Of a stretch of DNA of 32,583 nt, positions 1 to 28,967 are shown piece by piece (the stretch's first letter is position 1; every line of letters begins with the position of its first letter). Under the pieces are notes generated by a model. The model did not search any database and was not told the origin of the DNA. It saw nothing but the letters and a program-made list of their open reading frames with translations. The stretch is from positions 1 through 32,583 of the forward strand of contig PWVN01000185.1 of assembly GCA_003561835.1 (NCBI GenBank), in the 5' to 3' direction. Position numbers and translations under genes: made by a program. Source of the stretch: Syntrophomonadaceae bacterium. GTDB taxonomy: Bacteria > Bacillota > Dethiobacteria > PWVN01.

Positions 1-1373
1 AATTGTGTGTAGATGAACCCGCGACGGGCATCACCGAACGTCACGGCATGCGACCGTCGGCTCATAAATACATAGGCTGCTCCCAGCAAAATCACCGCGA
101 CGCTTGCCTGCAAGGGATCAATAAGCGCCATCACAGCCAAACAGGCAATCGCTCCCAGCAAAGCTGTGCTCCAATGAAAACATCGGAACCGTGGTCGAAA
201 CGAGGGGTTGGCTCCAAATGCCTCGACGAAAGCCGCCACATTAATAATCAAATAGGTGCACAGAAAGAACATCGTGACCAACATCGCCACCTGATTGAAG
301 GCAGCGCCGGCATCGTCTGCTGTTGCCATCCATAAAACTCCGACCGTGACGATGAAGGTCAAAATCAGCGCCCGGCGGGGTTCATCACCTGTTTGGGTCC
401 CCGCAGCAAACAGATTCAATGGTCGCAAGAGGCGGTCGCGAGCGATGGCCTGGAGGACGCGCGGAGCCGCCAGGAAAGATGCCAACGCACTAGAGATGGT
501 TGCGGCGAACATGCCCGCCACCACTAGCGAGGCGGCCCCCAGCGCGGCATTGGCTAACAACACGCCATAGGGCGACACCCGCATGAATTCCCGCTCGCTC
601 GCCCCGCCCAGCAAAACGATCTGCAAGCCATACACGACGAATCCAACGCCAATTGCCGCCAGCGTTCCCTGGACCAGCGAGCGCCCTGGATTCTTGAGAT
701 CGCCCGACATATTGATCCCAGCCATGATCCCGGTAACCGCCGGGAAATAAATGGCAAAGACAGTCCACAAACCCACGCCCTCCGTATAATTGGGTTTCCA
801 ATTGCTTGCAAACAGATCTGCACGAAAGGACATCGCTAGTCCGGACAGGAAAGTCAAGAGGGCCAGACTGAGTACAGAAAGAATCAGAAATTGCACCTTC
901 ACAGCCCAACGGATGCCGATGTAATTGATGATAAAAAGAACAAGCGCGGTACCCAAACAAACCCAACGAAGATGATCATGAAACCAAGGGACGCTCTGCG
1001 CCATGGCCTCCGCAAATCCCAAAATGTAAAATGGAACGGAAAGCGTCTGAGCCACAAACAGGGTAATGCCAATGGCTCCGCCAAACTCAGGCCCAAGCAC
1101 CCGCGAAATCAAAAAATACGCGCCCCCGCCGTGAACTTTCGTATTCGTGGAGATGGCAGCGATAGACAAAGCTGTCAGGATAACGATGATCTCTGCAATG
1201 ATCAGAATGATCAAGGCACCCGAAACTCCCGCCTGCGCGACCACGTAGCCTGCGCGTAGAAATAGTATAACTCCCAATATCGTCAGAACCGAGGGAGTAA
1301 ATACACCAGCGAATGTTCCCAATCGATGGGGAACAGGATCTGCTTGAGCCTCATCCAGTGTCGAGTTCATCAT
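1..1373 (-). CDS. SLC12-like cation:chloride cotransporter / APC-superfamily permease, 3' end cut by the window edge
   Basis: My own minus-strand translation from ATGATG (1373/1370) runs without a stop to base 3 (457 codons): MMNSTLDEAQADPVPHRLGTFAGVFTPSVLTILGVILFLRAGYVVAQAGVSGALIILIIAEIIV...FAIYFPAVTGIMAGINMSGDLKNPGRS... It is multi-TM, and the GVFTPSVLTILGVILFLR and FPAVTGIMAG motifs are typical of the SLC12/CCC branch. It starts 11 nt after the tatC stop. It is not in the supplied ORF track, presumably because no stop codon lies inside the window. Confidence 0.75.
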   Translation of the reverse strand, partial: MMNSTLDEAQADPVPHRLGTFAGVFTPSVLTILGVILFLRAGYVVAQAGVSGALIILIIAEIIVILTALSIAAISTNTKVHGGGAYFLISRVLGPEFGGAIGITLFVAQTLSVPFYILGFAEAMAQSVPWFHDHLRWVCLGTALVLFIINYIGIRWAVKVQFLILSVLSLALLTFLSGLAMSFRADLFASNWKPNYTEGVGLWTVFAIYFPAVTGIMAGINMSGDLKNPGRSLVQGTLAAIGVGFVVYGLQIVLLGGASEREFMRVSPYGVLLANAALGAASLVVAGMFAATISSALASFLAAPRVLQAIARDRLLRPLNLFAAGTQTGDEPRRALILTFIVTVGVLWMATADDAGAAFNQVAMLVTMFFLCTYLIINVAAFVEAFGANPSFRPRFRCFHWSTALLGAIACLAVMALIDPLQASVAVILLGAAYVFMSRRSHAVTFGDARRGFIYTQ

Positions 1374-1384: not shown

Positions 1385-2173
1385 TCAATGACGCAAATTG
1401 TGTTTTTGACGACGCTCCGAGATCTGCACCACCCAGATACAAAACTCATACAACACCACCAACGGACCGGCCATGATCACTTGTGTGATCGGATCCGGAG
1501 GTGTCAGCACCATGGCCACAATCAGCAAGATAACGATGACCAAACGTCGCCGTTGACGGAGTTGCTGCGATGAGATTAATCCCAATCGCCCCAGCACCAC
1601 AAGGATGACAGGCATTTGAAAAGCGATCCCAAACGCCAGCAACAAATGCACCACAAAAGCAACATAACTAGTCACTTGTGGCACAGGTTGGATGCCCAAC
1701 CAGTCGTGCATTCCAAACATCATCCGAAGTCCGACCGGCAGCGTGAAGGTGTATCCCAACCATACTCCCACGATAAATAGCACAATGGAGAAACCACCCG
1801 TCTGACGGATGACGGCCTTTTCCTTGTTCGTGAGCCCCGGGAAAATAAATTGTCCAATGAAGAACAGCAAAAAGGGTGCACTCAACAGCAAGCCACTCCA
1901 AAGCCCAACCCGCATGGTGACAGAAAAAGCGCCAGTCACTTCGATCGATTGCAGAAACAAGTCGGGATGTTTAACCACGCGATCCAACGGAGCCTTGAGG
2001 AAAGCAAAAATCAACGGAACAAACGGCAACGTAATGGCCGTTCCTACGGCAAGAGCAAGCGCGCAGCGGATCAACATCTGCCGCAAATCCTCCAAGTGCT
2101 CTAAAAACGGCTTGGTGACTTCTTCCTCATCATCATCCGCTAGCTGGGAGCCGACCTCAGCGGATGAGCTCAT
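1385..2173 (-). CDS. tatC: Sec-independent protein translocase subunit TatC
   Basis: 262-aa track ORF with six hydrophobic segments. The TatC-like N-terminus (FLEHLEDLRQMLIR) and C-terminal PPDPITQ motif are present. It overlaps the tatA stop by 4 nt (ATGA). Confidence 0.9.
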   Translation of the reverse strand: MSSSAEVGSQLADDDEEEVTKPFLEHLEDLRQMLIRCALALAVGTAITLPFVPLIFAFLKAPLDRVVKHPDLFLQSIEVTGAFSVTMRVGLWSGLLLSAPFLLFFIGQFIFPGLTNKEKAVIRQTGGFSIVLFIVGVWLGYTFTLPVGLRMMFGMHDWLGIQPVPQVTSYVAFVVHLLLAFGIAFQMPVILVVLGRLGLISSQQLRQRRRLVIVILLIVAMVLTPPDPITQVIMAGPLVVLYEFCIWVVQISERRQKHNLRH

Positions 2174-2508
2174 AAAGAGTCCCTCGGTGAAGACGGATCT
2201 AGATTCACGGCACCCATCGCAGCTGTCTTCTGACCTGATTGCGGATGCGGCTTCTCAGATGTCGACGCACCCTTTTTCTGAAGCTGCTTTGGAGAAACCA
2301 CAGAGTGAGGCTGTTTCAGATCATCATCCTCATCGGCATGAACGATTTCATCCGTCACTTCTCGAGCGGCACGCCGGAATTCTTCTAGGGTTCGCCCCAG
2401 CGTGCGCGCCATCCGAGGCAAATTCTTGGCCCCAAAAAGCAACAGCACGGCCAGCAGGACGAGCAATAACTCGCCACCACCGGGCGTGCCGAAGAAAGCC
2501 AGTATCAC
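2170..2508 (-). CDS. tatA: Twin-arginine translocase TatA/TatE family protein
   Basis: GTG start with GAGG about 7 nt upstream. The N-terminus GGELLLVLLAVLLLFGAKNLPRMARTLGRTLEEFRRA is the classic TatA TM plus amphipathic helix (FGxxKLP). It has a long acidic/polar tail and sits immediately upstream of tatC. Confidence 0.85.
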   Translation of the reverse strand: MILAFFGTPGGGELLLVLLAVLLLFGAKNLPRMARTLGRTLEEFRRAAREVTDEIVHADEDDDLKQPHSVVSPKQLQKKGASTSEKPHPQSGQKTAAMGAVNLDPSSPRDSL

Positions 2509-2516: not shown

Positions 2517-2930
2517 CTATCGTGTGACAATAAATTCAGACCGGCGGTTTTGTCTCCACGCCTCTTCGTTGTGGCCGAAAGCCACCGGTCGCTCAGCACC
2601 AAAACTGCGCGTCTGGAGACGAGATCCATCAATACCCAATCCGATCAAATAAGCGCGGGCAGCCAACGCACGCCGCTCGCCGAGAGACAAGTTGTAGGCT
2701 CGACTGCCGCGTTCATCCGTGTGCCCTTCGACGATCACATTCACTGAAGGGTTCCGTCGCATGTAAGCGGCCACTTCTTCCAGCTTCCACCGTTCTGGTT
2801 CGGCAATCTGAGCACTATCAAACGCAAACAAAACTGCTTCAAATTGTCCTTCGATATGCTCTCCATCAAAGGCGCTTCGAGGTCCCAAGCCATCCGTAAA
2901 AATATTATCTCCGGGGAGTCCACCAACCCC
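2517..2930 (-). CDS. OmpA_C / Pal-like peptidoglycan-binding protein, 5'-truncated at the breakpoint
   Basis: The OmpA C-terminal domain is readable: FAFDSAQI...[31 protein letters not shown]...GAERPVA. The frame stays open upstream of the track's TTG (2888) to 2948 (..[14 protein letters not shown]..). There is no signal peptide, lipobox or credible start, so the N-terminal part is missing. Confidence 0.75.
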
Positions 2931-2931
2931 G

Positions 2932-2952
2932 GTGGAAGAATTGCAGGGTTAG
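2932..2952 (+). pseudogene. rpsE: Terminal fragment (last ~6 codons plus stop) of ribosomal protein S5 gene
   Basis: The plus frame reads ..VEELQG* with its stop at 2950-2952, 11 nt before the rpmD ATG. S5 proteins end in GK-x-VEE-hL-G, and rpsE canonically precedes rpmD. The rest of the gene is absent. Confidence 0.4.
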
Positions 2953-2963
2953 GAGGAAAGAAC

Positions 2964-3152
2964 ATGAGCAAGGAGATAAAAATCACCCTTATACACAGCC
3001 CCATCGGCAGAAGCCAGCGGCAGAAGGATACCGTCAAGGCCCTGGGGTTCACCAAAATGTACCAGACGGTGTCAAAGCCCGATTCGCCGGCCATCCGGGG
3101 AATGATCGCCAAGGTTTCCCATCTGCTTCGGGTTGAGGAAGCGGGTTCCTAG
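2964..3152 (+). CDS. rpmD: 50S ribosomal protein L30
   Basis: ATG at 2964 preceded by AGGAGGA (2951-2957). The 62-aa product is [29 protein letters not shown]... The track ORF 2844..3152 carries a spurious N-terminal extension across the breakpoint. Confidence 0.95.
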
Positions 3153-3178
3153 GCGGCGACTAAAAAGGAGGTGTACGA

Positions 3179-3616
3179 ATGCGGCTCCATGAACTGAAAC
3201 CCGATACGGGTACAACCGGAAGAAAACGCAAAGGCAGGGGGATCGGTTCCGGCCTGGGGAAAACCGCCGGCCGGGGGCAAAAAGGCCAAAAATCCCGCTC
3301 CGGCGGCGGCGTGCGGCCCGGATTCGAGGGGGGACAGATGCCCCTGCAGCAGCGCCTGCCCAAACGCGGCTTTACCAACCTGGCCCGCCGGGAATTTTCC
3401 GAAGTGAATGTGGAAGTCTTGAACCGCTTCGAGAACGACACGGTGGTGACCCCCGAAATGCTGCTTGAGGCGGGCTGTGTGAAAAAACTGCAGGCCGGCC
3501 TGAAGGTCCTGGGCCGGGGGGAACTGGAACGGAACCTGACGGTCAGGGCCCATAAATTCAGTAAAGCGGCTGCAGAAAAGATCGAGGCCGCAGGCGGCAA
3601 GGCAGAGGTGATATAA
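3179..3616 (+). CDS. rplO: 50S ribosomal protein L15
   Basis: MRLHELKP...[38 protein letters not shown] is the canonical L15 N-terminus. The position between rpmD and secY also fits. Confidence 0.95.
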
Positions 3617-4876
3617 GTGCTGGAAACCCTACGGACAGCGTGGAAAATCAAGGACTTGCGGCAAAAGATTCTCTTTACCCTTTCCATGCTCTTTGTTTTC
3701 CGCCTGGGCTCCTTCATTCCCATCCCGGGGGTGGACCCCTCCAGGCTGCAGGAACTCTTTCAGGGGGACAACCTTTTTGGCCTTATGAACGTGATCACGG
3801 GGGACGCCTTGAGCCGGTTTTCCATCTTCGCCATGGGCATTTTCCCCTATATCAACGCTTCCATCATCATGAACCTGTTGACCATCGTCATCCCCAAACT
3901 GGAGCAACTGGCCAAGGAAGGGGAAGAGGGGCGGAAGAAAATTGCCCAGTTCACCCGCTACGGGACAGTGCTCCTGGCCCTGATCCAGGCCACGGGCATG
4001 ACCTTTACCCCCTTTATCCAGCAGGCCGTCATCAACCGGGGGGGCTTTGCCAACTTCACCATCATCATATCCCTGACGGCGGGGACCGCCTTCCTCATGT
4101 GGCTGGGGGAAATGATCACGGATCGGGGGATCGGCAACGGCATATCCCTCATCATCTTTGCCGGCATCATCGCCGGGTTTCCCTCGGCAGCGGCCGTCCT
4201 CATCGAGACGGTGCGGGTGGGTGAGGCCAGCATCATCCTGGCCGTCGTTGTTGTCCTTATCCTCGTCGGCCTCCTGGTGGGGATCGTGGGGCTGGAAGAG
4301 GGGCAGCGGCGCATCCCCGTCCAGTATGCCAAGCGGATCGTGGGCCGCCGCATGTACGGCGGGCAGTCCACCCACATACCCCTGAAGGTGAACCAGGCCG
4401 GCGTGATTCCCGTCATTTTTGCCTCCGCCATCCTGACCCTGCCGGCCACCCTCGCCCAGTTCATCGACCAGCCCATCGTCAACCGCATCGGGGATGCCCT
4501 GACCTTCGGCAGGCCCTTGAACACCGTTTTGTACTTTATGCTGATTTTCTTTTTCACTTTTTTCTACACGGCCATTCAGTTCGACCCCATGAAGGTATCG
4601 GGGGACATGAAGAAGTACGGCGGGTTCATCCCGGGGCTGCGGCCCGGGCGGCCCACGGCTGAGTACCTGGCCCGGGTTTCTTCCCGCCTGACCTTTGCCG
4701 GCGCCCTGGCCTTAGCTTCCATCGCCGTAATGCCCATCCTCTTTCAGAATGCCACCCGGGTCAACATGATGTTCTCCGGGACGGGCCTCATCATCATCGT
4801 GGGGGTGGCCCTGGAGACCATGAAGCAGATCGAAACCCACATGCTGATGCGGAACTACCAGGGGTTCATGAAATAG
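3617..4876 (+). CDS. secY: Preprotein translocase subunit SecY
   Basis: GTG start directly after the rplO stop. The 419-aa, 10-TM protein begins ..DLRQKILFTLSMLFVFRLGSFIPIPGVD. Confidence 0.95.
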   Translation: MLETLRTAWKIKDLRQKILFTLSMLFVFRLGSFIPIPGVDPSRLQELFQGDNLFGLMNVITGDALSRFSIFAMGIFPYINASIIMNLLTIVIPKLEQLAKEGEEGRKKIAQFTRYGTVLLALIQATGMTFTPFIQQAVINRGGFANFTIIISLTAGTAFLMWLGEMITDRGIGNGISLIIFAGIIAGFPSAAAVLIETVRVGEASIILAVVVVLILVGLLVGIVGLEEGQRRIPVQYAKRIVGRRMYGGQSTHIPLKVNQAGVIPVIFASAILTLPATLAQFIDQPIVNRIGDALTFGRPLNTVLYFMLIFFFTFFYTAIQFDPMKVSGDMKKYGGFIPGLRPGRPTAEYLARVSSRLTFAGALALASIAVMPILFQNATRVNMMFSGTGLIIIVGVALETMKQIETHMLMRNYQGFMK

Positions 4877-4889
4877 CGGGGGGCGACGG

Positions 4890-5636
4890 ATGATAACCCA
4901 CAAGTCTTCCCGAGAGTTGGAATTGATGCGCCGGGCCGGCAGGATCGTGGCCGAAGCCCTGGACATCATGAAGGGGGCCATCCGCCCGGGGCTGGCCACC
5001 CTGGAACTGGACCGCCTGGCGGAGAAGCACATCCGGAGAGAGGGGGGAATTCCCGCCTTCAAGGGCTACCGGGGTTTTCCCGCCAGCATCTGCGCCTCCG
5101 TCAATGAGGAGGTGGTCCACGGGATCCCGGGCCTTCGCCGCCTGAAAGAGGGCGATATCATCAGCATTGATGTGGGTGTCCAGTACCAGGGTTACTTCGG
5201 GGATGCGGCCGCCACCTTTCCCGTGGGCCAAATAGAGGAGGAGGCAGAGTGCCTCATCCGGGTCACCCGGCGGGCCCTGGAAGCGGGGATCCAGCAGACC
5301 AGGGAAGGAAATTTTTTGAGCGATATATCCAATGCCGTCCAGACCTATGCCGAAAGCCGGGGGTTTTCCGTGGTCCGGAACTACGTGGGCCACGGCATCG
5401 GCTCCGAGATGCACGAGGAACCCCAGGTCCCCAACTTCGGGCCGCCGGGCCGGGGGCCAAAACTCTCCTCCGGCATGACCCTGGCCATCGAACCCATGGT
5501 CAATGCCGGCACCTGGCAGGTGGACACCCTGGCTGACGAATGGACGGTGGTTACCCAGGACGGCCGGCTCTCGGCCCACTTTGAACACACCGTGGCCATC
5601 GTTAAAGGGTGCCCGGAAGTTTTAACGGTCCTGTAA
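4890..5636 (+). CDS. map: Type I methionine aminopeptidase
   Basis: 248 aa containing ..HGIPG..GDIISIDVG...HGIG..HEEP..EPM.. metal-ligand motifs. Confidence 0.95.
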   Translation: MITHKSSRELELMRRAGRIVAEALDIMKGAIRPGLATLELDRLAEKHIRREGGIPAFKGYRGFPASICASVNEEVVHGIPGLRRLKEGDIISIDVGVQYQGYFGDAAATFPVGQIEEEAECLIRVTRRALEAGIQQTREGNFLSDISNAVQTYAESRGFSVVRNYVGHGIGSEMHEEPQVPNFGPPGRGPKLSSGMTLAIEPMVNAGTWQVDTLADEWTVVTQDGRLSAHFEHTVAIVKGCPEVLTVL

Positions 5637-5702
5637 GGGCCCAAATACCCGGACAGCTGAACGCAGGCAGCCGAGCCGGGCAAAGGGAGGGAAGATATCT
5701 GG

Positions 5703-5924
5703 ATGTCCAAAAAAAAGGACGCCATTGAGGTGGAGGGAAAGGTTGTCGAACCCCTGCCAAATGCCATGTTCCGCGTGGAATTAAAGAATGGCCATAAAAT
5801 ACTGGCCCATGTTTCCGGGAAGATCCGCATGAACTTCATCCGCATCCTGCCGGGAGACAGGGTCTTGGTTGAGTTGTCCCCTTACGATTTGCAGCGGGGC
5901 CGGATAACTTACCGTTTCAAATAA
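5703..5924 (+). CDS. infA: Translation initiation factor IF-1
   Basis: 73 aa: [54 protein letters not shown].. This is essentially the consensus IF-1. Confidence 0.97.
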
Positions 5925-5931
5925 GCCATAG

Positions 5932-6057
<126 letters not shown>

Positions 6058-6129
6058 GAAGTATATTTTACCATCTGGTAGGGAAACCTAATTGCATTGT
6101 CAACTTTTTGCCATACAGGAGGTGTAGAA

Positions 6130-6501
6130 ATGGCTCGTATTGCAGGTATCGACCTGCCCCGGGAGAAGCGAGTGGAAATCGCTCTGACTTATATCTACGG
6201 CATCGGACGCTCCACGTCCAGAAAGATCCTGAATTCCACCAAGGTCAACTCCGACACCCGGGTCAGGGATTTGACGGAAGATGAAGTGGCCCGCCTCAGG
6301 GAATATATCGATAGAGGGGTCAAGGTGGAGGGAGACCTGCGCCGGGAAATCACCATGAATATCAAAAGGCTCATGGAGATCGGCTGCTACCGGGGAATCC
6401 GGCACCGACGGGGCATGCCCGTGCGGGGCCAGACCACGAAAAACAACGCCCGCACCCGCAAGGGACCCAAACGGACCGTGGGCATCAGAAGGAAAAAATA
6501 G
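6130..6501 (+). CDS. rpsM: 30S ribosomal protein S13
   Basis: [30 protein letters not shown].. AGGAGG lies 8 nt upstream of the ATG at 6130. The track ORF starts 33 nt earlier. Confidence 0.95.
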
Positions 6502-6516
6502 AAGGGGGGAACTGCG

Positions 6517-6909
6517 TTGGCTCGAAGAAAAACCGCCCGTACCAAACGGAGGGACCGCAAGAATATTGAGCATGGCATTGCCCATATCAAGTCTACCTTT
6601 AACAATACCATCGTCAGCATTTCCGACCTCAAGGGGAACAGCATAGCCTGGTCCAGCGCCGGGAATGTGGGCTTCAAGGGATCCCGCAAGTCCACGCCCT
6701 TTGCCGCCCAGCTGGCGGCCGACAGCGCCGCCAAGGCGGCCATGGAGCACGGGATGCGGGAAGTGGAAGTGTATGTGAAGGGCCCGGGGGCCGGCCGGGA
6801 AGCCGCCATCAGGTCCCTGCAGGCCGCCGGCCTGGAAGTGAACATGATCAAGGATGTTACACCCATTCCCCATAATGGCTGCCGCCCACCAAAACGGCGC
6901 CGGGTATAA
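6517..6909 (+). CDS. rpsK: 30S ribosomal protein S11
   Basis: TTG start. The product reads ..[45 protein letters not shown].. Confidence 0.95.
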
Positions 6910-6939
6910 GAAGTGAAGCAGGAGGTGCAAGGATAAAGG

Positions 6940-7566
6940 ATGGCTCGTTACAAAGATTCGGTTTGCAGGCTCTGCCGACGGGAAGGAACGAAATTGTATT
7001 TAAAAGGCGAAAGGTGCTACACGGATAAATGTGCCGTGAGCCGCCGGGCCTATGCCCCCGGCCAGCACGGCCAGCGGCGGACAAAGGTCTCGGAATACGG
7101 TACCCAGCTCAGGGAAAAGCAGAAGGCCCGCCGCATCTACGGGGTCCTGGAAGGCCAGTTCCGGAAATACTTTAAGGAAGCCGACCGGCGCAGGGGGATC
7201 ACCGGGGAGAACCTGTTGCGGATCCTGGAAAGCCGCCTGGACAATGTGGTTTTCAGGCTGGGCTTTGCCCTGTCCCGGGCTGAAGGCCGCCACATGGTGC
7301 GCCACGGCCACATCAACGTCAACGGACGCAGGGTGGACATCCCCTCCTACCAGGTAAAGCCCGGGGATGTGGTCAGCGTGGGAGACAAGGGCAGGAAGAA
7401 TGCCCGCATCAAGGAAGTGGTAGAAATTATGGAAGGCCAGGGGACGCTGGAATGGTTGGAAGTGGACAGGGAAAACCTGGTGGGCAAAGTCCTCCGGGTT
7501 CCCAGCCGGGATGAAATCGATATCCCCGTCCAGGAACACCTGATCGTGGAGCTTTACTCCCGTTAA
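6940..7566 (+). CDS. rpsD: 30S ribosomal protein S4
   Basis: [32 protein letters not shown].. contains the S4 zinc-ribbon-like N-terminus, and an S4 RNA-binding domain follows. Confidence 0.95.
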
Positions 7567-7625
7567 GCCGCTGCCAGAGGATCCGGCGAAAACCCATTTG
7601 GGCAAAGGAGGGCTTATAATCAATT

Positions 7626-8573
7626 ATGATAGAAATTGAAAAGCCGAGGATTGAGAGAGTAAAGGGCAATGAGGAGAACACGTACGGAAGTTTTGTGATC
7701 GAACCCCTGGAACGGGGGTACGGCATTACCCTGGGCAATTCTCTCAGGCGGATACTCCTTTCCTCCCTTCCTGGTACGGCCATTACAGCCATAAAGATTG
7801 ACGGTATTCTGCATGAATTCTCAACCATACCCGGAGTGGTGGAAGATACCATAGAGATGATTTTGCACCTGAAAGAACTATCCATGAAGATCTACAGCGA
7901 CGAACCCCAGACCCTCATCATCGAGAGGGAGGGGGACGGCGCCATCTACGCCCGGGACATCAAGGTGCCCGCGGATGTGGAAGTCCTAAACCCGGACCTC
8001 TATATCGCCACCATGGAAAAGGGGGCCAAGCTGTACATGGAGATGACGGCTTCCGTAGGCCGGGGGTATGTGCCGGCGGAGCGGAACAAGCAGGCGAACC
8101 AACCCCTGGGCGTCATTCCCGTAGACTCCATCTTCACCCCCATCCGCAGGGTCAACTACAGGGTGGAAGACACCCGGGTGGGCCAGATTACCGACTACGA
8201 CAAGCTGACCCTGGAAGTTTGGACGGACGGCAGCATCAAGCCCGATGAGGCCATCAGCCTGGGCGCCAAAATTTTGAACAAGCACCTGAGCCTCTTCGTG
8301 AACCTGACGGAAAAGGTCGATGAGGTGGAGATCACCACGGAAAAAGATGAAGACGAGCGGGAGAGGATTCTGGACATGACCATCGAGGAACTGGACCTGT
8401 CCGTCCGCTCCTACAACTGCCTCAAGCGGGCCGGCATCAACACGGTGGGGGAACTCATCAACAAGACGGAAGATGACATGATGAAGGTCCGCAACCTGGG
8501 GAAGAAATCCTTGGAGGAAGTCCAGCAGAAGCTGGCGGAGTTGAACTTTTCCCTCAAGGAAAGCCATGAATAG
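7626..8573 (+). CDS. rpoA: DNA-directed RNA polymerase subunit alpha
   Basis: 315 aa beginning [41 protein letters not shown].., with the C-terminal domain ..[22 protein letters not shown].. Confidence 0.95.
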
Positions 8574-8590
8574 AAAAGGAGGGAGCAGGG

Positions 8591-8932
8591 TTGGCCGACT
8601 CGAAACTGGGACGCAGGAGCGAAGCCCGCAAAGCCTTATTGCGCAACATGGTAACTTCGCTTTTACGGTCCAAACGGATTGAAACAACAGAAACCAAGGC
8701 CAAGGAAGCCCGCATCATTGCGGAACGGATGATTACCCTGGCCAAGCGGGGGGACCTGCATGCCAGGCGTCAGGCCCTGGCTTATCTCTTGGATGAAGAT
8801 GTGGTCAAGGACCTCTTCGACAACCTGGCCATCAAATATGATGACCGCCAGGGGGGCTACACCCGGATCATCAAAAAAGGCCCCCGTCGGGGCGACGGCG
8901 CCCCCGTTGTCATCCTGGAGATGGTTGAATAA
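8591..8932 (+). CDS. rplQ: 50S ribosomal protein L17
   Basis: TTG start. The product reads ..[35 protein letters not shown]... and the gene follows rpoA. Confidence 0.93.
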
Positions 8933-8941
8933 GGACCAAAA

Positions 8942-8969
8942 GGGCAGAAGCAGGGTTTCTGTCCTTTTT
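8942..8969 (+). terminator. Rho-independent terminator after rplQ
   Basis: GGGCAGAA (8942-8949) pairs with TTCTGTCC (8957-8964), including one G-U pair, around a 7-nt loop. It is followed by TTTTT. Confidence 0.6.
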
Positions 8970-9003
8970 CACGCAGGAGGTTTTTTTGGGGGGGGCAGGG
9001 GAC

Positions 9004-9828
9004 ATGATTTCGGTGCAGGATCTTTTCTTTACCTATGAGAAGGCGGGAGAGGAAGGGGCAAAGGCCCTTAACGGCATCAACCTTACCATAGACCGGGGGG
9101 AGTATACGGCCGTCATCGGCCACAACGGTTCGGGGAAATCCACCCTGGCCAAGCATTTCAATGCCCTTCTGACCCCCACCGCCGGGGAAGTCCTGGTGGA
9201 TGGCATGTCCACCCGGGAACGAAAGTACCTCTACGAGATCCGCCAGCGGGTGGGTATGGTTTTTCAAAACCCGGACAACCAGATTGTGGCCACCACCGTG
9301 GAAGAGGATGTGGCCTTCGGCCCCGAAAATCTGGGGCTCCCCCCCCGGGAAATCCGGGAGCGGGTGGCGGAAGCCCTGGAACTGGTCCGCATGGCGGACA
9401 TGCGCCGGCATGCCCCCCACCTCCTTTCGGGAGGGCAGAAACAGCGGGTGGCCATCGCCGGGGTCATCGCCATGCGGCCCAGGTGCCTGGTCCTGGATGA
9501 ACCCACGGCCATGTTGGACCCCCGGGGCCGGGAGGAAGTCCTGCAGACGGTTCTCCGCCTCAACGAGGAGGAGGGCATCACCGTCATCTATATCACCCAC
9601 TTCATGGAAGAGGCCCGCCGGGCCCGCAGCCTGGTGGTCATGGACCGGGGACGGATCGTCCTTAAGGGCCCTCCCCGCCAGGTCTTTGCCCGGGGAGACC
9701 TGCTGCGGTCCCTGGGGCTGGAAGTCCCCCCCGTCACGGAGCTGGCCCAGCGCCTCAAGGGCCGGGGCCTTCCGGTGGCCCCGGACATCCTGGATGCCGA
9801 GGAGCTGGTAACTTCGCTATGCTCCTAG
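9004..9828 (+). CDS. ecfA1: ECF transporter ATPase component EcfA1
   Basis: MISVQDLFFTYE.. with Walker A GHNGSGKST, signature LSGGQKQRVAIAG and Walker B LVLDEPT. The start is taken at ATG 9004 rather than the track's 8986. Confidence 0.9.
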   Translation: MISVQDLFFTYEKAGEEGAKALNGINLTIDRGEYTAVIGHNGSGKSTLAKHFNALLTPTAGEVLVDGMSTRERKYLYEIRQRVGMVFQNPDNQIVATTVEEDVAFGPENLGLPPREIRERVAEALELVRMADMRRHAPHLLSGGQKQRVAIAGVIAMRPRCLVLDEPTAMLDPRGREEVLQTVLRLNEEEGITVIYITHFMEEARRARSLVVMDRGRIVLKGPPRQVFARGDLLRSLGLEVPPVTELAQRLKGRGLPVAPDILDAEELVTSLCS

Positions 9829-10688
9829 AAGTGCAGGGCCTCACCCATGTGTATATGCGGGGGACCCCCTTTGAGGTCACGGCGCTGCAGGAAACCGACC
9901 TGCAGATCAAAAAGGGGAGCATTACGGGGATTATCGGCCAGACGGGTTCCGGAAAAACCACCCTGGTGCAGCATTTCAACGGGCTGCTGCCCCCTTCCCG
10001 GGGGCGGGTCCTCTACGAGGGCCGGGACATCTGGGAGGAAAAAACCCTCCTGCGGGAGGTCCGGCGCCAGGTGGGGCTCCTCTTTCAGTACCCCGAGGAG
10101 CAGCTTTTCGAAGACCGGGTCTACGACGATGTGGCCTTCGGGATCAAGGGGCTGAAGCTTCCCCCCCGGGTGGAGGAGGAACGGGTCAAAAGGGCCCTTA
10201 ACCGGGTGAACCTGGACTACCGGGCCGTTAAGGACCGTTCGCCCTTCAGCCTCAGCGGCGGCGAAAAGCGCCGGGTGGCCATGGCGGGGGTCCTGGTTAT
10301 GGACCCGAAGCTCCTGGTCCTGGACGAGCCCACGGCGGGCCTGGACCCCCGGGGGCGGCGGGAAATTCTGGAGGAGATCCGGGAGCTCCACCGGGAGGGC
10401 GGTTTGACGGTGGTCCTCGTTTCCCACAGCATGGAGGATATCGCCTGGCTGGCAAAGGACCTCCTGGTCCTTCAGGACGGCCGGATCATCCTGCGGGGAA
10501 CCCCCGGGGAGGTTTTTGCCCGGGAGGAACTGCTGAGGGAGGCGGGGTTGGCGGTGCCGGAGGTGAACCGGGTCTTGAAGGGCCTGAAGGAAGCGGGCTT
10601 TGACCTGGACACGGGCATCTACACGGTGGAGGGAGCCGAAGCGGAGATTTTGCGGGTTGTGGGGGGTAAGCGCCGTGAGCCTCATTAA
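9819..10688 (+). CDS. ecfA2: ECF transporter ATPase component EcfA2
   Basis: Walker A GQTGSGKTT, signature LSGGEKRRVAMAG and Walker B LVLDEPT. It overlaps the end of ecfA1 by 10 nt. Confidence 0.9.
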   Translation: MLLEVQGLTHVYMRGTPFEVTALQETDLQIKKGSITGIIGQTGSGKTTLVQHFNGLLPPSRGRVLYEGRDIWEEKTLLREVRRQVGLLFQYPEEQLFEDRVYDDVAFGIKGLKLPPRVEEERVKRALNRVNLDYRAVKDRSPFSLSGGEKRRVAMAGVLVMDPKLLVLDEPTAGLDPRGRREILEEIRELHREGGLTVVLVSHSMEDIAWLAKDLLVLQDGRIILRGTPGEVFAREELLREAGLAVPEVNRVLKGLKEAGFDLDTGIYTVEGAEAEILRVVGGKRREPH

Positions 10689-11478
10689 GAGCATTACCAT
10701 CGGCCAGTACCTGCCCGGGACTTCCCCCCTGCACCGGCTGGACCCCAGGCTGAAGATTATTTCCTTGATTTTGTATATTACCGCCATTTTTTTCGTCCGT
10801 ACCTTTGCCGGCTACGGGGCAGCCTTCCTTTTTACCTCCTTTCTGCTGCTCCTGGCCCGGCTGCCCCTGGGCTACGTGATCCGGGGGCTCAGGCCCGTCC
10901 TCTTCCTGGTGGCCTTTACCATCCTCCTCCACTTTTTCATGACCAAGGGGGGGGAGGTGCTGGTGCGAATCGGCCCCCTAACCGTCGAATCGGCGGGGGT
11001 GAGGCTGGGGCTCTTCATGAGTTTGAGGCTCCTGTTCCTGGTGGTGACCACCTCCCTTCTAACCCTCACCACCTCCCCCATCGCCCTGACGGACGGGATC
11101 GAGTACCTGTTGAAGCCCTTCAAGAGGGTGGGCCTGCCCGCCCATGAAATCGCCATGATGATGACCATCGCCCTGCGGTTCATTCCAACCCTCATGGAGG
11201 AGAGCCAGAAGATCATGAAGGCCCAGATGGCCCGGGGGGCGGATTTCGAGTCCGGCGGGTTCCTCCAGAGGGCCCGCAGCATGGCCCCTCTCCTGGTGCC
11301 CCTCTTCATCAGCGCCTTCCGCCGGGCCGACGACCTGGCGGTGGCCATGGAGGCCCGCTGCTACCGGGGCGGGGAGCACCGGACCCGGATGAAGGAGATG
11401 GTGGTTACGCCCTTGGACTACTGGGCCCTGGCGGCGGTGACGGCCTTTTTGCTCCTCATCGCCCTGTCGGGCATCTAG
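10675..11478 (+). CDS. ecfT: ECF transporter transmembrane component EcfT
   Basis: GTG at 10675 gives VSLIKSITIGQYLPGTSPLHRLDPRLKI.., the typical EcfT/CbiQ N-terminus, and the ..ARGADF.. motif region is present. It overlaps the end of ecfA2. Confidence 0.88.
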   Translation: MSLIKSITIGQYLPGTSPLHRLDPRLKIISLILYITAIFFVRTFAGYGAAFLFTSFLLLLARLPLGYVIRGLRPVLFLVAFTILLHFFMTKGGEVLVRIGPLTVESAGVRLGLFMSLRLLFLVVTTSLLTLTTSPIALTDGIEYLLKPFKRVGLPAHEIAMMMTIALRFIPTLMEESQKIMKAQMARGADFESGGFLQRARSMAPLLVPLFISAFRRADDLAVAMEARCYRGGEHRTRMKEMVVTPLDYWALAAVTAFLLLIALSGI

Positions 11479-11495
11479 GGGGAGGGGGACAGCTC

Positions 11496-12254
11496 ATGAA
11501 TTACAAGGTCACCCTGGCCTATGACGGCACCCGCTACAGCGGGTTCCAGAGGCAGGCCAATGCCAACACCATCCAGGAAGAGGTGGAGAAGGCCCTGGAG
11601 GTCATCTACGGCCGTCGAGTGCGGATCAGCGGCGCCGGCCGCACTGACAGCGGGGTTCACGCCCGGGGCCAGGTCATCTCCTTCGAAGCCGACGGGCGGG
11701 TCCCCCTGAAGTCCCTGCCCCACGCCTTAAAGGGCCTCCTGCCCCGGGACATCGTAGCCTGGAAGGCGGAACCGGCGGCGGAGGGGTTTCACGCCCGCTT
11801 CTCCCCCTCCCGGAAGGAGTACTGCTACACCGTGGACAGCGGCGCCTTTCCCGATGTCTTCACCCGACGCTACGCCTACCACTACCCGGGGCCCCTGGAC
11901 CTTAAGGCCATGCAGGCGGCGGCGGCGGAGCTGAAGGGCGAACATGACTTCTCCGCCTTCCAGGGGGCGACCAGCGATACCCGGGAAACCTGCCGCCGCC
12001 TGGAAGAGGCATCTGTCTTCTCCCGGGGGCACTACGTGAAGATGGTCTTCCGCTCCGGGGGGTTCCTCTACAAGATGGTCCGGATCATGGCAGGCACCCT
12101 GCTGCAGGTGGGAGGGGGGAACCTCAAACCCGGGGACCTCCGGGACATCCTGGCCTCGGGCTGCCGGGAGGGGGCGGGCCCCACGGCTCCTCCCCACGGG
12201 CTGTGCCTGGAGTTAGTCCTTTATGAAGGGGTTTTTGGGCCGGGGGCAGGGTAA
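11496..12254 (+). CDS. truA: tRNA pseudouridine(38-40) synthase TruA
   Basis: YDGTRYSGFQRQ.. and the catalytic motif GAGRTDSGVHARGQV. The order ecfAAT-truA-rplM-rpsI is canonical for Firmicutes. Confidence 0.93.
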   Translation: MNYKVTLAYDGTRYSGFQRQANANTIQEEVEKALEVIYGRRVRISGAGRTDSGVHARGQVISFEADGRVPLKSLPHALKGLLPRDIVAWKAEPAAEGFHARFSPSRKEYCYTVDSGAFPDVFTRRYAYHYPGPLDLKAMQAAAAELKGEHDFSAFQGATSDTRETCRRLEEASVFSRGHYVKMVFRSGGFLYKMVRIMAGTLLQVGGGNLKPGDLRDILASGCREGAGPTAPPHGLCLELVLYEGVFGPGAG

Positions 12255-12287
12255 AAAAGATAAAACCCGGTTAACCTGCGGTTTATC

Positions 12288-12316
12288 TTGACATGGCCGG
12301 GCAAATTTAATAAAAT
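12288..12316 (+). promoter_or_regulatory. Sigma-A type promoter for rplM-rpsI
   Basis: TTGACA (12288-12293), an exactly 17-nt spacer, then TAAAAT (12311-12316), about 85 nt upstream of the rplM ATG. Confidence 0.6.
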
Positions 12317-12322
12317 TACCAT

Positions 12323-12398
12323 GTAGTGTGCTCTTTTCGGTTGGATTGAGCCCCGGATCGAAGGGAGGGCACGGCAGATACAAACAGGAGGGAAAAGG
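12323..12398 (+). promoter_or_regulatory. Candidate ribosomal protein L13 leader (5' UTR structure)
   Basis: The ~76-nt 5' UTR has a stem GUGCUCU (12328-12334) / AGGGCAC (12366-12372) enclosing further pairing. An L13 leader motif is known upstream of rplM in Firmicutes. I cannot verify a match to the covariance model by eye. Confidence 0.35.
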
Positions 12399-12827
12399 AT
12401 GCGGACTTTTATGGCAAAAGCCACTGACGTGGAACGGAAGTGGTATGTGGTTGATGCCCAGAACAGAGCCCTGGGGCGGGTGGCCAGCGAGGTGGCCCGG
12501 CTCCTCAGGGGAAAACATAAACCGGTATTCACTCCCCATGTGGATTCGGGGGATTACGTCATCGTCCTCAACGCGGGAAAGGTCCTTTTGACAGGAAACA
12601 AGGCCTCGCAGAAGTTCTACTACCGTCACTCCGGGTACCCCGGAGGCCTGAAGGCCATCTCCTACGGGGACCTCTTGAAGAAGAACCCCCGCAAGGTCAT
12701 GGAACTGGCGGTAAAGGGCATGCTGCCCCAGACCAAGCTGGGTAGGGCCATGTTCAAAAAGTTGAAGGTATACCAGGGCAGCCAGCACCCCCATGCCGCC
12801 CAGATGCCTGAACAATGGGATAGTTAA
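12399..12827 (+). CDS. rplM: 50S ribosomal protein L13
   Basis: [49 protein letters not shown].. AGGAGGG lies upstream. Confidence 0.95.
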
Positions 12828-12845
12828 GGGAAAGGAGGAATATCA

Positions 12846-13238
12846 GTGGCCCAAGTCAATTATATCGGCACAGGTCGTCGCAAGAATTCCATCGCCAGAG
12901 TGCGTCTGATTCCCGGGGGCGGCAGCACCATCGTCAACGGCAAGCCCCTGGATGAATATTTTGGTCTGGAGACCTTGAAGGTGATCGTCAGGCAGCCCCT
13001 GGTCCTGACGGAAACCCTGGATAAGTTCGATGTCATCGCCAGCGTTTCGGGCGGCGGTTTTTCCGGTCAGGCGGGAGCCATCCGCCACGGCATCGCCAGG
13101 GCCCTCCTCAAGGCCGACGTGGATTTTCGCCCCTCGCTGAAGAAGGCAGGGTTTTTGACCCGGGACCCCCGCATGAAGGAGAGGAAGAAGTACGGCCTCA
13201 AGAAAGCCCGGCGGGCACCCCAGTTTTCCAAAAGATAA
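12846..13238 (+). CDS. rpsI: 30S ribosomal protein S9
   Basis: GTG start. The product reads (M)[20 protein letters not shown]...[19 protein letters not shown]...[17 protein letters not shown]. Confidence 0.95.
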
Positions 13239-13240
13239 AG

Positions 13241-13262
13241 CAGCGGACGCTGCTTTTTTTTT
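13241..13262 (+). terminator. Rho-independent terminator after rpsI
   Basis: GCAGC-GGAC-GCTGC hairpin (13241-13254) flanked by AAA upstream and followed by eight T (13255-13262). Confidence 0.75.
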
Positions 13263-13333
13263 ACCCGGGAAATCGAGCAGCGCTGCCGGCAGGAATCCGG
13301 TCCGGCAGCCGCTGAAGGAGGAGAGATGGGCTC

Positions 13334-13489
13334 ATGGATATTTACCAGGTGGATGCCCACATCCTGTGGGAGAGGGGATGGCTGCCAGGGGGAGAAGAGG
13401 CTCGTTTTTTCACGAAGAGCGGCCCCCTTTCGGCCCGCCGCCTCCCCCTGGAAGGGGGCGGTGAAGGTTCGGCCCCCCTGGGCTCATGA
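13334..13489 (+). CDS. Hypothetical 51-aa small ORF whose stop overlaps the ppx start
   Basis: Hand translation: MDIYQVDAHILWERGWLPGGEEARFFTKSGPLSARRLPLEGGGEGSAPLGS*. A purine-rich SD-like run GAAGGAGGAGAG (13314-13325) lies upstream. The stop TGA (13487-13489) overlaps the ATG of the next gene (13486) as ATGA. It is below the track cutoff and I recognise no family. Confidence 0.25.
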   Translation: MDIYQVDAHILWERGWLPGGEEARFFTKSGPLSARRLPLEGGGEGSAPLGS

Positions 13490-14502
13490 GGGGCCCCGCT
13501 GCCGGGGCGGGGTCCCTGAGAGGACGGGAGAGAGCTCAAGGGAAGGCCGTTATCGATGTGGGTTCCAATTCCATCAAGCTGTTTGCCGCCGCAAAGACCC
13601 GGGAGGGGGGTGTCAAGACCCTGGCGGACCGGGTCCGGATCGGGGGCCTGGGCCGGGGACTTCGCCCGGGGGGCGCCCTGTCCCGGGAGGCCATGGAGGA
13701 AAACTGCCGCATCATTTGCTCCCTTGTCCGGGAGGCGGCGGAACTGGGCTGCCGGGACGTGGCGGCGGTGGGAACCATGGCCCTGCGGGAAGCCCGGAAC
13801 AGCCGGGAGTTTTTGGCCCTGGTAAAGGAAAGCTGCGGCCTCACCATCCGGGTCCTGATGGGCCTGGAGGAGGCCAGGTGGGCCTACCGGGGGGTCTGCG
13901 GGGGCTTCCCCCGGGCCGGCAACCGGGTGGTCTTCGATATCGGCGGGGGCAGCATTGAATTCATCGCCGGCCGGGGAGAGGAAGCAGGGGGTGGTGTTTT
14001 GTCCCTACCCCTGGGGATCCTGGCGGTAACGGAGGAGTTTCTTGCCTCGGACCCGGTTAGGCCCGGGGAGGAAAGGGCGGCGGGGGAAGCCGTCAGAGCC
14101 CGCCTGGTATCAGGGGGAGTGCCCCTTAAGGGAGAAGAGCTTATCGGTATAGGGGGTACAGTGACCAGCATGGCTGCCGTCAAGCAGGGGCTGGCCGTCT
14201 ACGACCCTCAAAGGGTCCACGGCTTAACCCTGAGCCTTGAAGAGGTGGAGGGCCAGGTGGCCCTCTTCAGGAGCAAAACCCTGGCCGAGCGGCGGCGGAT
14301 TGCGGGCCTTTCCCCGGACCGGGCCCCGGTGATCCTGGCCGGGGCCATCATCCTGCGGGAGGTCCTGCGGCTTCACCCGGCTCCCCTGCTCCTGGTGAGC
14401 GACCGGGGTTTGCGCCACGGGGTCATGGAGGAACTCCTCCGGGCCAGCGGGCCAGGGACCATTTTCCAGGAAACTGCCGGGGAGCTTCATCATAGGGATT
14501 AA
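13486..14502 (+). CDS. Ppx/GppA family phosphatase (exopolyphosphatase / pppGpp phosphohydrolase)
   Basis: ..AVIDVGSNSIKLFAA.. (ASKHA phosphate-1 motif), ..VFDIGGGSIEF.. and ..IGIGGTVTS.. The start is uncertain because there is no clear SD before 13486. Confidence 0.85.
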   Translation: MRGPAAGAGSLRGRERAQGKAVIDVGSNSIKLFAAAKTREGGVKTLADRVRIGGLGRGLRPGGALSREAMEENCRIICSLVREAAELGCRDVAAVGTMALREARNSREFLALVKESCGLTIRVLMGLEEARWAYRGVCGGFPRAGNRVVFDIGGGSIEFIAGRGEEAGGGVLSLPLGILAVTEEFLASDPVRPGEERAAGEAVRARLVSGGVPLKGEELIGIGGTVTSMAAVKQGLAVYDPQRVHGLTLSLEEVEGQVALFRSKTLAERRRIAGLSPDRAPVILAGAIILREVLRLHPAPLLLVSDRGLRHGVMEELLRASGPGTIFQETAGELHHRD

Positions 14503-14611
14503 TACCGGCCCCGGCTGAACCCCGAAGGAGGAAGCTTTCTCCAACCGAAGGCCCAAGCGGGAAGTTTGAGCCCGGGACGGGCAGATGCGGATAACCAGGG
14601 AGGTAGTTGGC

Positions 14612-15262
14612 ATGAAAAAATTCTTTCGCAGCCGGGCCAGGGACATCGAGGAAAAAATAGAAGAATACCTGTGCTGTATTTCCAAGGCGGGTCTCATCTT
14701 CAACGAGGGGATCCGGGACTATTTCCGGGATAAGCATGGGAGGTTGGAGGAGCGGCGCCAGGAGATTTCCCAGCTGGAGCGGGAAGCCGATGAGCTGCTG
14801 AAGAAGATCAAACACGACCTGTACGCCCACATGCTCATCCCCGAATCCCGGGGCGATGTTTTCGAGCTTCTGGACGACCTGGACGATATTGTGGATACCA
14901 CCAAGCAGGTTCTCCTGCAGCTTTCCATCGAGACCCCGGCAATCCCCCCCTTTCTCAGGGAGGATTTCCTGGATATGACCGGGGCCTCCATCAATGCCGT
15001 GGACGAACTGGTCAGGGGGGTGCGGGCCTTTTTCATGGAGACCCAAATGGTGGCGGATTACGTGAACAAGGTGTTTTTCTTTGAAAAGGAAGCCGACCGT
15101 CTGGAGGAGATCAGCAAGCGCCGGATCTTCTCCTCGGAGGAAACCCGCCTCTCCTGCAAGATGCATATCCGTCATTTTATCGAGAAGATCGCCCTTCTTT
15201 CCGACAAATCCGAGGAAATTGCCAAGAACCTCCTGATTTATGCCGCCAAACGTTCCATCTGA
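14612..15262 (+). CDS. DUF47 (TIGR00153, PhoU-like) phosphate-transport accessory protein
   Basis: MKKFFRSRARDIEEKIEEYL...EREADELLKKI... is a helical PhoU-like protein, and it sits directly upstream of a PiT transporter, which is the conserved pairing. The start is taken at ATG 14612, 27 nt inside the track ORF. Confidence 0.85.
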   Translation: MKKFFRSRARDIEEKIEEYLCCISKAGLIFNEGIRDYFRDKHGRLEERRQEISQLEREADELLKKIKHDLYAHMLIPESRGDVFELLDDLDDIVDTTKQVLLQLSIETPAIPPFLREDFLDMTGASINAVDELVRGVRAFFMETQMVADYVNKVFFFEKEADRLEEISKRRIFSSEETRLSCKMHIRHFIEKIALLSDKSEEIAKNLLIYAAKRSI

Positions 15263-15374
15263 GGGGTGGGCAAAGCCCGGTGAGAAAGGGAGAGAATCCC
15301 GCCGGAAAGGGTTTCAGATTCAGGGAGCCTGAGAATATTCCCGTGAACCCGGGTGCGGAAAGGGGGATGAGCCG

Positions 15375-16424
15375 ATGCCCGGCAGTTTCTTCTTCTTGAG
15401 CAGCGGCCTCTTCATGGGCTGGGGCCTGGGGGCCAACGATGCGGCCAATATCTTCGGCACCGCCGTGGCCACCCGGATGATCCGCTACAGGACGGCTACG
15501 GTTATCGCCGGCGTTTTCATCATCCTGGGGGCCGTCAGCGGCGGCGGGGGGGTCTCCCGGACCTACGGGCAGTTGGGGGCCGTCAACGCCCTGCCCGGGG
15601 CCTTTACCGTTGCCTTCGCCGCCGGCCTCACCGTGTTGTGGATGGTCCGGTTGGGACTGGCCGTATCCACCTCTCAGGCCATCGTGGGGGCCATCGTGGG
15701 CTGGAACCTTTTCTCCGGGACCCCCACGGATACGGGCACCCTCTACCGCATCATGAGCACCTGGGTCTTCGCCCCCTTCCTGGGGGGCCTGCTGGCCGTC
15801 GCCCTCTACCTGCCGGCCCGCCGCTTCCTCAACCGGACCCGGATCCACCTGCTCAGACTGGACAGCTACACCCGGGCGGCCCTCCTGGCGGCGGGCGCCT
15901 TTGGCGCCTACAGCCTGGGCATGAACAACATCGCCAACGTTATGGGGGTTTTCCTTCACGACTCCCCCTTTCGGGACCTGTACCTGGGGGCGGGCCTGAC
16001 CTTTACGGGAATCCAGCAGCTGTTCCTCCTGGGGGGGGCAGCCATGGCTTTGGGGGTCCTCACCTATTCCCGGAAGGTCATGATGACGGTGGGTTCAGGA
16101 ATCTACGCCCTTTCCCCCGTCACTGCCTTCATCGTGGTCCTGGCCTCCTCCCTGGTCCTCTTCGTCTTCGGCTCCCAGGGCCTCCAGTCCCTTCTTCTGT
16201 CCCTGGGGCTTCCCGCCCTCCCCCTGGTGCCCGTCTCCCAGTCCCAGGCGGTGGTGGGGGCCGTGACAGGCATAGGCCTGGCCCGGGGGGGCGGGAACAT
16301 CAACTTCCGGCTTCTGGGGAAAATCGGCCTGGGCTGGGTGGCCACCCCCGCCGCCGCCGCCCTTTTGGCCTACATCGGCCTCTTCTTCATGCAAAACGTC
16401 TTCCTGCAGCCCGTCTTTTTTTAA
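15375..16424 (+). CDS. Inorganic phosphate transporter, PiT (PHO4) family
   Basis: 349 aa and multi-TM. GANDAANIFGTAVATR at the N-terminus and a second ..GMNNIANVMG.. repeat are the PiT signature. Confidence 0.9.
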   Translation: MPGSFFFLSSGLFMGWGLGANDAANIFGTAVATRMIRYRTATVIAGVFIILGAVSGGGGVSRTYGQLGAVNALPGAFTVAFAAGLTVLWMVRLGLAVSTSQAIVGAIVGWNLFSGTPTDTGTLYRIMSTWVFAPFLGGLLAVALYLPARRFLNRTRIHLLRLDSYTRAALLAAGAFGAYSLGMNNIANVMGVFLHDSPFRDLYLGAGLTFTGIQQLFLLGGAAMALGVLTYSRKVMMTVGSGIYALSPVTAFIVVLASSLVLFVFGSQGLQSLLLSLGLPALPLVPVSQSQAVVGAVTGIGLARGGGNINFRLLGKIGLGWVATPAAAALLAYIGLFFMQNVFLQPVFF

Positions 16425-16519
16425 TCCCAAGCCGGGGATCCGGCTGCTCCTGCCGTCTTAGGGCGTCTTAGGTCAGGGGACTGAATATTTCCAAGATTCT
16501 AGCGCCGCCGCCGGTTCTG

Positions 16520-16528
16520 TGGTATAAT
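16520..16528 (+). promoter_or_regulatory. Extended -10 promoter element upstream of the carbonic anhydrase gene
   Basis: TGGTATAAT (TGn plus perfect TATAAT at 16523-16528), about 40 nt upstream of the ATG at 16570. The -35 is poor. Confidence 0.4.
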
Positions 16529-28963: not shown

Positions 28964-28967
28964 GTCC

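Follow-up and report, generated by a model that had tools for sequence, protein, structure and literature searches.

A Metagenomic Contig That Almost Certainly Joins Kiritimatiellia and Bacillota DNA Artifactually at Five Shared Nucleotides

The window, that is, the whole stretch of 32,583 nucleotides that was analyzed, is almost certainly an artifactual inter-genome chimera, in which, judging from the sequence and from its relatives in other assemblies, a Kiritimatiellia piece of about 2.9 kb (positions 1–2933) would have been joined end to end with a Bacillota piece of 29.6 kb. The join is regarded as a sequencing or assembly artifact because other assemblies of both organisms run normally past the breakpoint. 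It has no biological function, and the genes on its two sides are not neighbors in any cell. The first-pass annotation of this DNA had already favored a chimeric assembly or a concatenation over a recent rearrangement, and this preference is now supported by the related contigs, as 7/7 continue with an intact gene at the breakpoint. Its warning that nothing on the left should be read as genomic context for the genes on the right was correct. The adjacency is not shared elsewhere, nor is there a full-length OmpA-like start or a full-length rpsE at this place.

Results

Gene content on both sides of the junction

All genes to the left of the junction lie on the minus strand, and Pfam agrees with the identities that had been given to them from the translations alone. 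An SLC12-type amino-acid/cation permease gene (3..1373, minus strand; Pfam AA_permease, 2.6e-50) is cut by the window start and therefore incomplete, with its N-terminal 457 codons present; the homologue on the contig of the parent MAG (SLBD01000035.1, here L003) is 745 aa long and contains both AA_permease and SLC12 domains, and the best-segment protein identity to it is 100%. Further along lie tatC (1385..2173, minus strand; Pfam TatC, 2e-57), whose exact protein was found on the Logan contig SRR490155_1455543, and tatA (2170..2508, minus strand; Pfam TatA_B_E, 4.7e-15). The gene at the junction is a 5′-truncated pal (2517..2933, minus strand; Pfam OmpA, 4.5e-20, from residue 40 of the frame), of which codons 38–175 and the stop codon remain. 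Its OmpA_C-type frame (2517–2948) has its own stop at 2517–2519 and is open on the minus strand up to a stop at 2949–2951, and translation of both strands revealed no start, signal peptide, or lipobox in this frame. The best homologue of the fragment, P0001, is a full-length Pal of 175 aa with 99% identity that starts with MKNLKYALVLLMGVLLIVNVGGCKRRP..., which represents a signal peptide and a lipobox, and it is these elements that are encoded by the 37 N-terminal codons missing from the window. The earlier claim of a frame that is open from 2948 downward and lacks its 5′ part is thus borne out by translation as well as by P0001, of which the window retains only the part from codon 38 to codon 175.

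The right block (2934..32583, plus strand) is a Bacillota genome segment that starts within a spc/alpha ribosomal operon and passes into housekeeping genes, as assigned by colinearity, Pfam, and composition. At the junction, translation gives the 3′ remnant of rpsE (2929..2952, plus strand), comprising the last seven codons, PVEELQG, and the stop codon TAG at 2950–2952. The first 160 of the 167 codons are absent from the window, so that the S5 remnant ending in VEELQG, which had been described upstream of rpmD, is confirmed by the translation and by the S5 length of 167 aa in the relatives. Both junction genes are therefore cut without any compensating sequence, pal by codons 1–37 and rpsE by codons 1–160. 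The first intact gene of the right block is rpmD (L30; 2964..3152, plus strand; Pfam Ribosomal_L30, 7.7e-22), and a GGAGG motif at 2952–2956 lies between the S5 stop and the rpmD ATG at 2964. Pfam-supported genes for L15 (rplO, 3179..3616), SecY (secY, 3617..4876; Pfam SecY, 6.3e-113), and a Peptidase_M24/Map protein (map, 4890..5636) continue on the plus strand, and the exact L15 protein of the window is encoded on the Logan contig SRR490155_153061, which corresponds to window positions 2986–4001. The order of the block is rpmD-rplO-secY-map-infA-rpmJ-rpsM-rpsK-rpsD-rpoA-rplQ-ecfA-ecfA′-ecfT-truA-rplM-rpsI, and the later genes identified by Pfam encode a Ppx/GppA protein, a PhoU-like DUF47 protein, a PHO4 phosphate transporter, a beta-carbonic anhydrase, an MFS transporter, an NMT1-like binding protein, a PGA_cap protein, a metallophosphoesterase, a RACo-type corrinoid activase, a PRK/TGS kinase, a beta-eliminating lyase, an aldo-keto reductase with Fer4 domains, and a PAP2 phosphatase. 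These remaining genes are ordinary housekeeping genes, and there is no further discontinuity among them.

Several features of the right block can be recorded in their own right. Inside the L30 coding sequence, positions 3001–3026 (plus strand) hold a 13-nt tandem near-duplicate, CCATCGGCAGAAG / CCAGCGGCAGAAG, which is probably fortuitous. The secY gene is directly followed by map after a 13-nt gap (4876–4890), with no adk between them. The classical order in Bacillus subtilis is secY-adk-map; as the relatives L007, L008, L009, and L014 share the secY-map order without adk, this arrangement represents a lineage trait and not an error. Directly after rpsI, a phosphate cluster (13486–16424, plus strand) comprises the genes for the Ppx/GppA phosphatase, the PhoU-like DUF47 protein, and the PHO4-family transporter; at the corresponding position, L007 (68% identical) carries a PhzF-family gene followed by a gene for an AMP-binding enzyme. 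The open reading frame 17499–19844 (plus strand, 781 aa) matches MFS_2/MFS_1 only at residues 366–781, with no Pfam match in the first 365 residues, and the minus strand is also open at 17689–18522 within it; given the GC-rich sequence, the frame as called probably reaches too far, or it may conceal a separate gene upstream or on the opposite strand. The gene at 23026–24864 (plus strand) encodes a RACo-type reductive activator of corrinoid proteins with Fer2, RACo linker, middle, and C-terminal domains, which hints at a corrinoid-dependent methyl transfer or a Wood–Ljungdahl-type metabolism in the Bacillota organism. Finally, open reading frames on opposite strands overlap at 30218–32053, one on the minus strand (30218–32032, 604 aa, no Pfam match) and one on the plus strand (30962–32053, 363 aa).

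Composition switches once

The composition of the two blocks is clearly distinct. The GC content is 0.536 in 1–2933 versus 0.616 in 2934–32583, with a range of 0.52–0.69 among the right-hand 500-nt windows. The GC contrast that had been estimated from hand counts is thus real (53.6% versus 61.6%), but the impression that the right side is often above 65–70% was overstated. GC3 is 0.49–0.60 in the left genes and 0.70–0.85 in the right genes, and the GGG/CCC-rich style that had been noticed on the right is confirmed by a density of GGG plus CCC of 85/kb, as compared to 30/kb on the left. The tetranucleotide comparison, which the first-pass annotation had suggested as a check, points in the same direction: in a strand-symmetric profile, the correlation of left versus right is 0.34 (usage deviation 0.42), whereas ten equal-sized right-hand chunks correlate with the rest of the right block at r = 0.89–0.97 (usage deviation 0.85–0.92). 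The corresponding z-scores of about +9 (Euclidean distance) and −23 (usage-deviation correlation) are far beyond chance.

With third-order Markov models that were trained only on parental sequence from outside the window, the left model had an advantage of +0.04 to +0.05 per nt in each of the windows that make up 1–3000 (three in all), and of at most +0.002 in every 1-kb window after 3000. This indicates one switch in the window and no second one. The cumulative log-likelihood goes up to about 2900, forms a plateau to about 5000, and then goes down. Composition by itself therefore places the switch only at about 2900–5000, and the exact position had to be taken from alignments.

The crossover lies in a pentanucleotide common to both parents

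To locate the junction, the window was compared base by base with L001, L003, L004, and L005 as left-type contigs and with L013, L012, and L006 as right-type contigs. The left parents read ...CCACCAACC-CCGGT-TGTACCCC, the right parents read ...GGGGAGTA-CCGGT-GGAAGAATTGCAGGGTTAG, and the window matches the left parents up to and including CCGGT and the right parents from the first base of this motif onward. Identity to the left parent stops at 2933 and identity to the right parent starts at 2929, which defines the crossover as the 5-nt microhomology CCGGT at 2929..2933. Beyond this motif, the parental types are unrelated: the right-type contigs mismatch the window at most positions just left of 2929, as do the left-type contigs just right of 2933. 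The breakpoint had been placed at about 2926–2931, which is within 3 nt of the site, although the alignments shift it to exactly 2929–2933. When 400,000 random blunt joins of the same parental sequences were simulated, the probability of at least 5 shared nucleotides was 0.0054. A match of 5 nt is thus improbable for a random blunt join, which favors a step that seeks out homology, for example a switch of template or the merging of overlaps.

The surroundings of the junction bear on two further explanations. The whole window contains no tRNA or tmRNA genes, the repeats around 2500–3400 are short and at chance level with no flanking repeats among them, and no integrase, transposase, or IS element was found at the boundary. 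There is indeed no space for an integrase or IS element, because rpmD starts less than 35 nt from the junction, and the truncated pal and then tatA occupy the left side. An origin by a mobile element or by horizontal gene transfer was rejected, as tRNA, repeat, and integrase features are lacking and the essential rpsE is destroyed. A repeat-induced misassembly, in which an assembler crosses between genomes via a longer shared sequence such as a conserved gene, an IS element, or an rRNA or tRNA gene, is the most frequent source of inter-genome translocation errors in assembled metagenomes (a class treated in PMC9661791). The parents of this junction, however, have only CCGGT in common at the crossover, and neither a repeat nor a tRNA or IS element is present at the site, which makes such an origin extremely improbable. 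A collapse of repeats in particular is ruled out, since the shared stretch has 5 nt and at least 21 nt (k-mer length) would be required.

Left-type contigs continue with an intact pal

The Logan assembly of run SRR490155 contains a contig of 2759 nt (L001) that is 100% identical to the window at 181–2933; its next six bases are TGTACC, as opposed to GGAAGA in the window. The window start lies only 180 nt outside the end of this contig, which covers 181–2939, and the left block therefore resembles an entire small low-coverage contig that is stuck on a large one. The window itself may be a complete contig of 32,583 nt. L003 has 97.4% nucleotide identity to window 1–2933, ENA ERZ27301263 (L004) has 96.1% identity to the left block, and ENA ERZ27301262 (L005) is 100% identical over window 2313–2933 (621 nt) and extends 350 nt beyond. 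The latter three contigs, which belong to other datasets, all encode P0001, and their alignments to the window all end exactly at 2933. Together with L001, this gives 4/4 left-type contigs that run on past 2933 as TGTACCCC... / TGTACCCCCTCC..., a continuation that encodes the Pal N-terminus and hence the 37 codons absent from the window. Beyond Pal, a TolB-like PD40 gene follows in L003 and L004, and L005 stops there in a cut, unannotated open reading frame. The complete order in L003 is aminotransferase, small open reading frame, TolB-like PD40/Tricorn-domain protein, Pal (175 aa), TatA, TatC, and SLC12 permease (745 aa).

As an observation on the parent itself, the region 3539–5267 of L003 shows a 386-aa PD40/Tricorn-domain (TolB-like) gene ahead of pal, with tatA-tatC and the permease gene directly after pal, and the Kiritimatiellae parent thus shows a tolB-pal-tatAC linkage.

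Right-type contigs continue with an intact rpsE

On the right, three relatives reach across the breakpoint: contig JAXDEL010206943.1 of GCA_036681025.1 (L013; 99.7% nucleotide identity to window 2929–3241), a Logan contig of SRR31818008 (L012; 98.2% identity to window 2929–4634), and L006, with 86.6% nucleotide identity. All three (3/3) carry a complete rpsE of 167 aa directly upstream of rpmD. In L013 and L012, S5 ends with ...KLRGVPVEELQG*, and the exact L30 protein of the window is encoded beside this intact S5. The spc operon is whole upstream of rpmD in L006 and in the more distant L007, L008, and L009 (about 68% identity), and L007 additionally contains the S10 operon. Downstream, wherever the relatives reach, their order equals that of the window (secY-map-infA-rpsM-rpsK-rpsD-rpoA-rplQ-ecfA-ecfA′-ecfT-truA-rplM-rpsI), with colinearity to L007 and L008 up to 13238, and L014 (98.5% identical to window 4607–10413) confirms the continuity of the right block.

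Run SRR490155 also yielded a right-type Logan contig of 1016 nt (L002), which equals window 2986–4001 and is separate from L001; the junction is absent from both. No intact rpsE from the right organism in this run emerged from a search of S5 homologues and of their 90% cluster, and P0367, the sole candidate Logan member of the S5 90% cluster, comes from SRR16248207 and SRR16248219. Same-run evidence for a continuation therefore exists for the left side alone. Exact scans of the JGI metagenome contigs with the 42-mer 2934–2975 and with the 34-mer 2900–2933 gave 0 matches each; as this means that the parents are absent there too, the scans are uninformative on the junction.

Apart from the junction, we note that GCA_036681025.1 holds both L013 (99.7%) and the colinear L007 (about 68%), and that its accession suffixes exceed 11 million (JAXDEL011495004.1). 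It seems to be a whole-metagenome deposit with at least two related Bacillota lineages.

Two phyla in one sample

A scan with one genome per species linked the left side to SLBD01000035.1, annotated as "MAG: Kiritimatiellae bacterium isolate CSSed162cmB_431," followed by a Victivallaceae MAG with 47% as the second match. MAGs with the prefix CSSed162cmB are from Cock Soda Lake sediment (PMC6704655). The Kiritimatiellia lineage belongs to the PVC group, and the other named relatives of Pal are from Verrucomicrobia or Kiritimatiellae. Relatives of the right-block SecY and S5 are named Firmicutes, Bacillota, Dethiobacteria, Dethiobacter, or Clostridia. These named relatives place the two sides in different phyla, a diderm one and one of Firmicute type, which agrees with the contrast that the first-pass annotation had drawn from gene content, and the separate assignment of each side that it had recommended leads to a Kiritimatiellae MAG (97.4% nucleotide identity) on the left and to Firmicutes, Bacillota, or Dethiobacteria on the right. 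Both organisms are present in one sample, as the exact proteins of each side were found on separate Logan contigs of SRR490155.

These data also permit us to judge whether the junction could be a real one, created by a very recent inter-phylum, microhomology-mediated illegitimate recombination at CCGGT in a living cell. Illegitimate recombination typically involves a microhomology such as these 5 nt, which is improbable by chance, and the two organisms do co-occur in the same sample. However, such an event would have destroyed the essential rpsE and cut off secY and the genes behind it from the promoter of the spc operon, and the viability of the recipient is not accounted for, as seven codons of rpsE are left and no second copy is present in the 29.6-kb right block, whose gene order follows that of relatives with rpsE right before rpmD. 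The contigs that are 98.2–99.7% identical to the right block keep rpsE intact, and pal, which is truncated here, is intact in left DNA of 100% identity (L005), with the full tolB-like/pal pair in L003 and L004 (96–97% identical). Neither side shows amelioration, with 100% identity to same-run Logan contigs and a fully distinct composition, the boundary is devoid of mobile-element features, and the junction occurs in 0/7 of the related contigs examined at the breakpoint. We therefore consider a recombination of this kind, with Kiritimatiellia DNA fused inside rpsE of a Bacillota chromosome in a cell of the community, very unlikely; a genuine in-cell junction retains a very small residual probability. 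If it were true, the window would be a snapshot of an inter-phylum DNA integration that selection and amelioration had yet to act on, and the cell would probably be a dead end or a merodiploid.

Discussion

How the artifact may have come about

The artifactual join would have arisen during library preparation or assembly. The most likely source is one chimeric fragment or read that formed at the CCGGT microhomology, or else an assembler, scaffolder, or gap-closer that fused two low-coverage contig ends over this tiny overlap; either would yield precisely the structure observed. In both cases, a stray link would have bridged dead ends of both parents. The Logan contigs of SRR490155 end 6 nt past the breakpoint on the left (2939) and 52 nt from it on the right (2986), and these ends near the junction suggest that both parents dead-ended here. 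The coverage of both organisms in SRR490155 appears to be patchy, as exemplified by the exact RpoA of the window, which is on no SRR490155 contig, and low-coverage dead ends were probably present in both parents at the junction. Chimeric reads would be expected to break the unitigs at 2933 and 2929, and as the Logan ends at 2939 and 2986 miss these positions, we only infer the mechanism at the read level.

It may also be that the join was made after assembly, by concatenation of a 2.9-kb and a 29.6-kb contig of one assembly or bin with no spacer, in which case CCGGT would be coincidental. This could have happened when a scaffold was written without Ns or by a join at the level of the file, and the result would still be an artifact. 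Such a concatenation agrees with the extent of the left block, which at 1–2933 is nearly that of the Logan contig (181–2939) and thus has the look of a complete small contig, and with the start of the right block close to a Logan contig end (2986). Furthermore, an overlap of 5 nt is too short for any standard assembler, being far below what a k-mer or overlap assembler could itself join on. Against this, a blunt join yields an ambiguity of at least 5 nt in only 0.54% of cases, and the left block ends 6 nt before the same-run Logan contig, which still follows the true sequence there; such a shortfall is odd for an untrimmed contig end. Differing k and trimming settings could account for this 6-nt shortfall. 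On balance, we regard a post-assembly concatenation as a rather unlikely but still noteworthy origin, and a chimeric fragment or read, or an end merge on a tiny overlap, as the probable one.

Consequences for the use of the contig

The junction matters solely for quality control, and a split of the contig at 2933/2934 should precede any binning, taxonomic assignment, or gene-neighborhood inference. Without the split, Tol-Pal, Tat, and an SLC12 permease would be credited to a Firmicute bin, or a Firmicute ribosomal operon to a Kiritimatiellia bin, and estimates of completeness or contamination, as well as "HGT" calls, would go astray. The window illustrates cleanly how a chimera can cross at just five shared nucleotides, and we infer that checks which search for misjoins only at long shared repeats would miss it.

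Comparison with known types of junctions

A rare class of artifacts are in vitro chimeras, which arise by template switching or ligation during amplification or library construction. They join unrelated templates at a short microhomology, as is found here with CCGGT, and they matter mainly at low coverage, as at these contig ends. A genomic island or another horizontally transferred insertion can look similar, in that a block of foreign composition abuts host DNA at a microhomology, but here the essential rpsE is destroyed, the hallmarks of integrase, tRNA, or repeats are missing, and for each side there is a separate same-run contig that is 100% identical and lacks the junction. The closest counterpart is the inter-genome translocation misassembly of metagenomes, the class that is targeted by metaMIC and DeepMAsED (PMC9661791; bioRxiv 10.1101/763813). 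As in these cases, a single contig is composed of two genomes from the same community, taxon and composition switch abruptly, the genes at the breakpoint are truncated, and the parental configurations can be recovered from other assemblies. Such misassemblies usually pass through a repeat or a conserved segment that both genomes share over the length of a k-mer or more. With only 5 nt shared in our case, a graph collapse is less likely than a chimeric fragment or read, or than a step of end joining or scaffolding. The error thus belongs to a well-known class, and it is only slightly unusual in that the crossover took place at 5 nt and not at a repeat of k-mer length.
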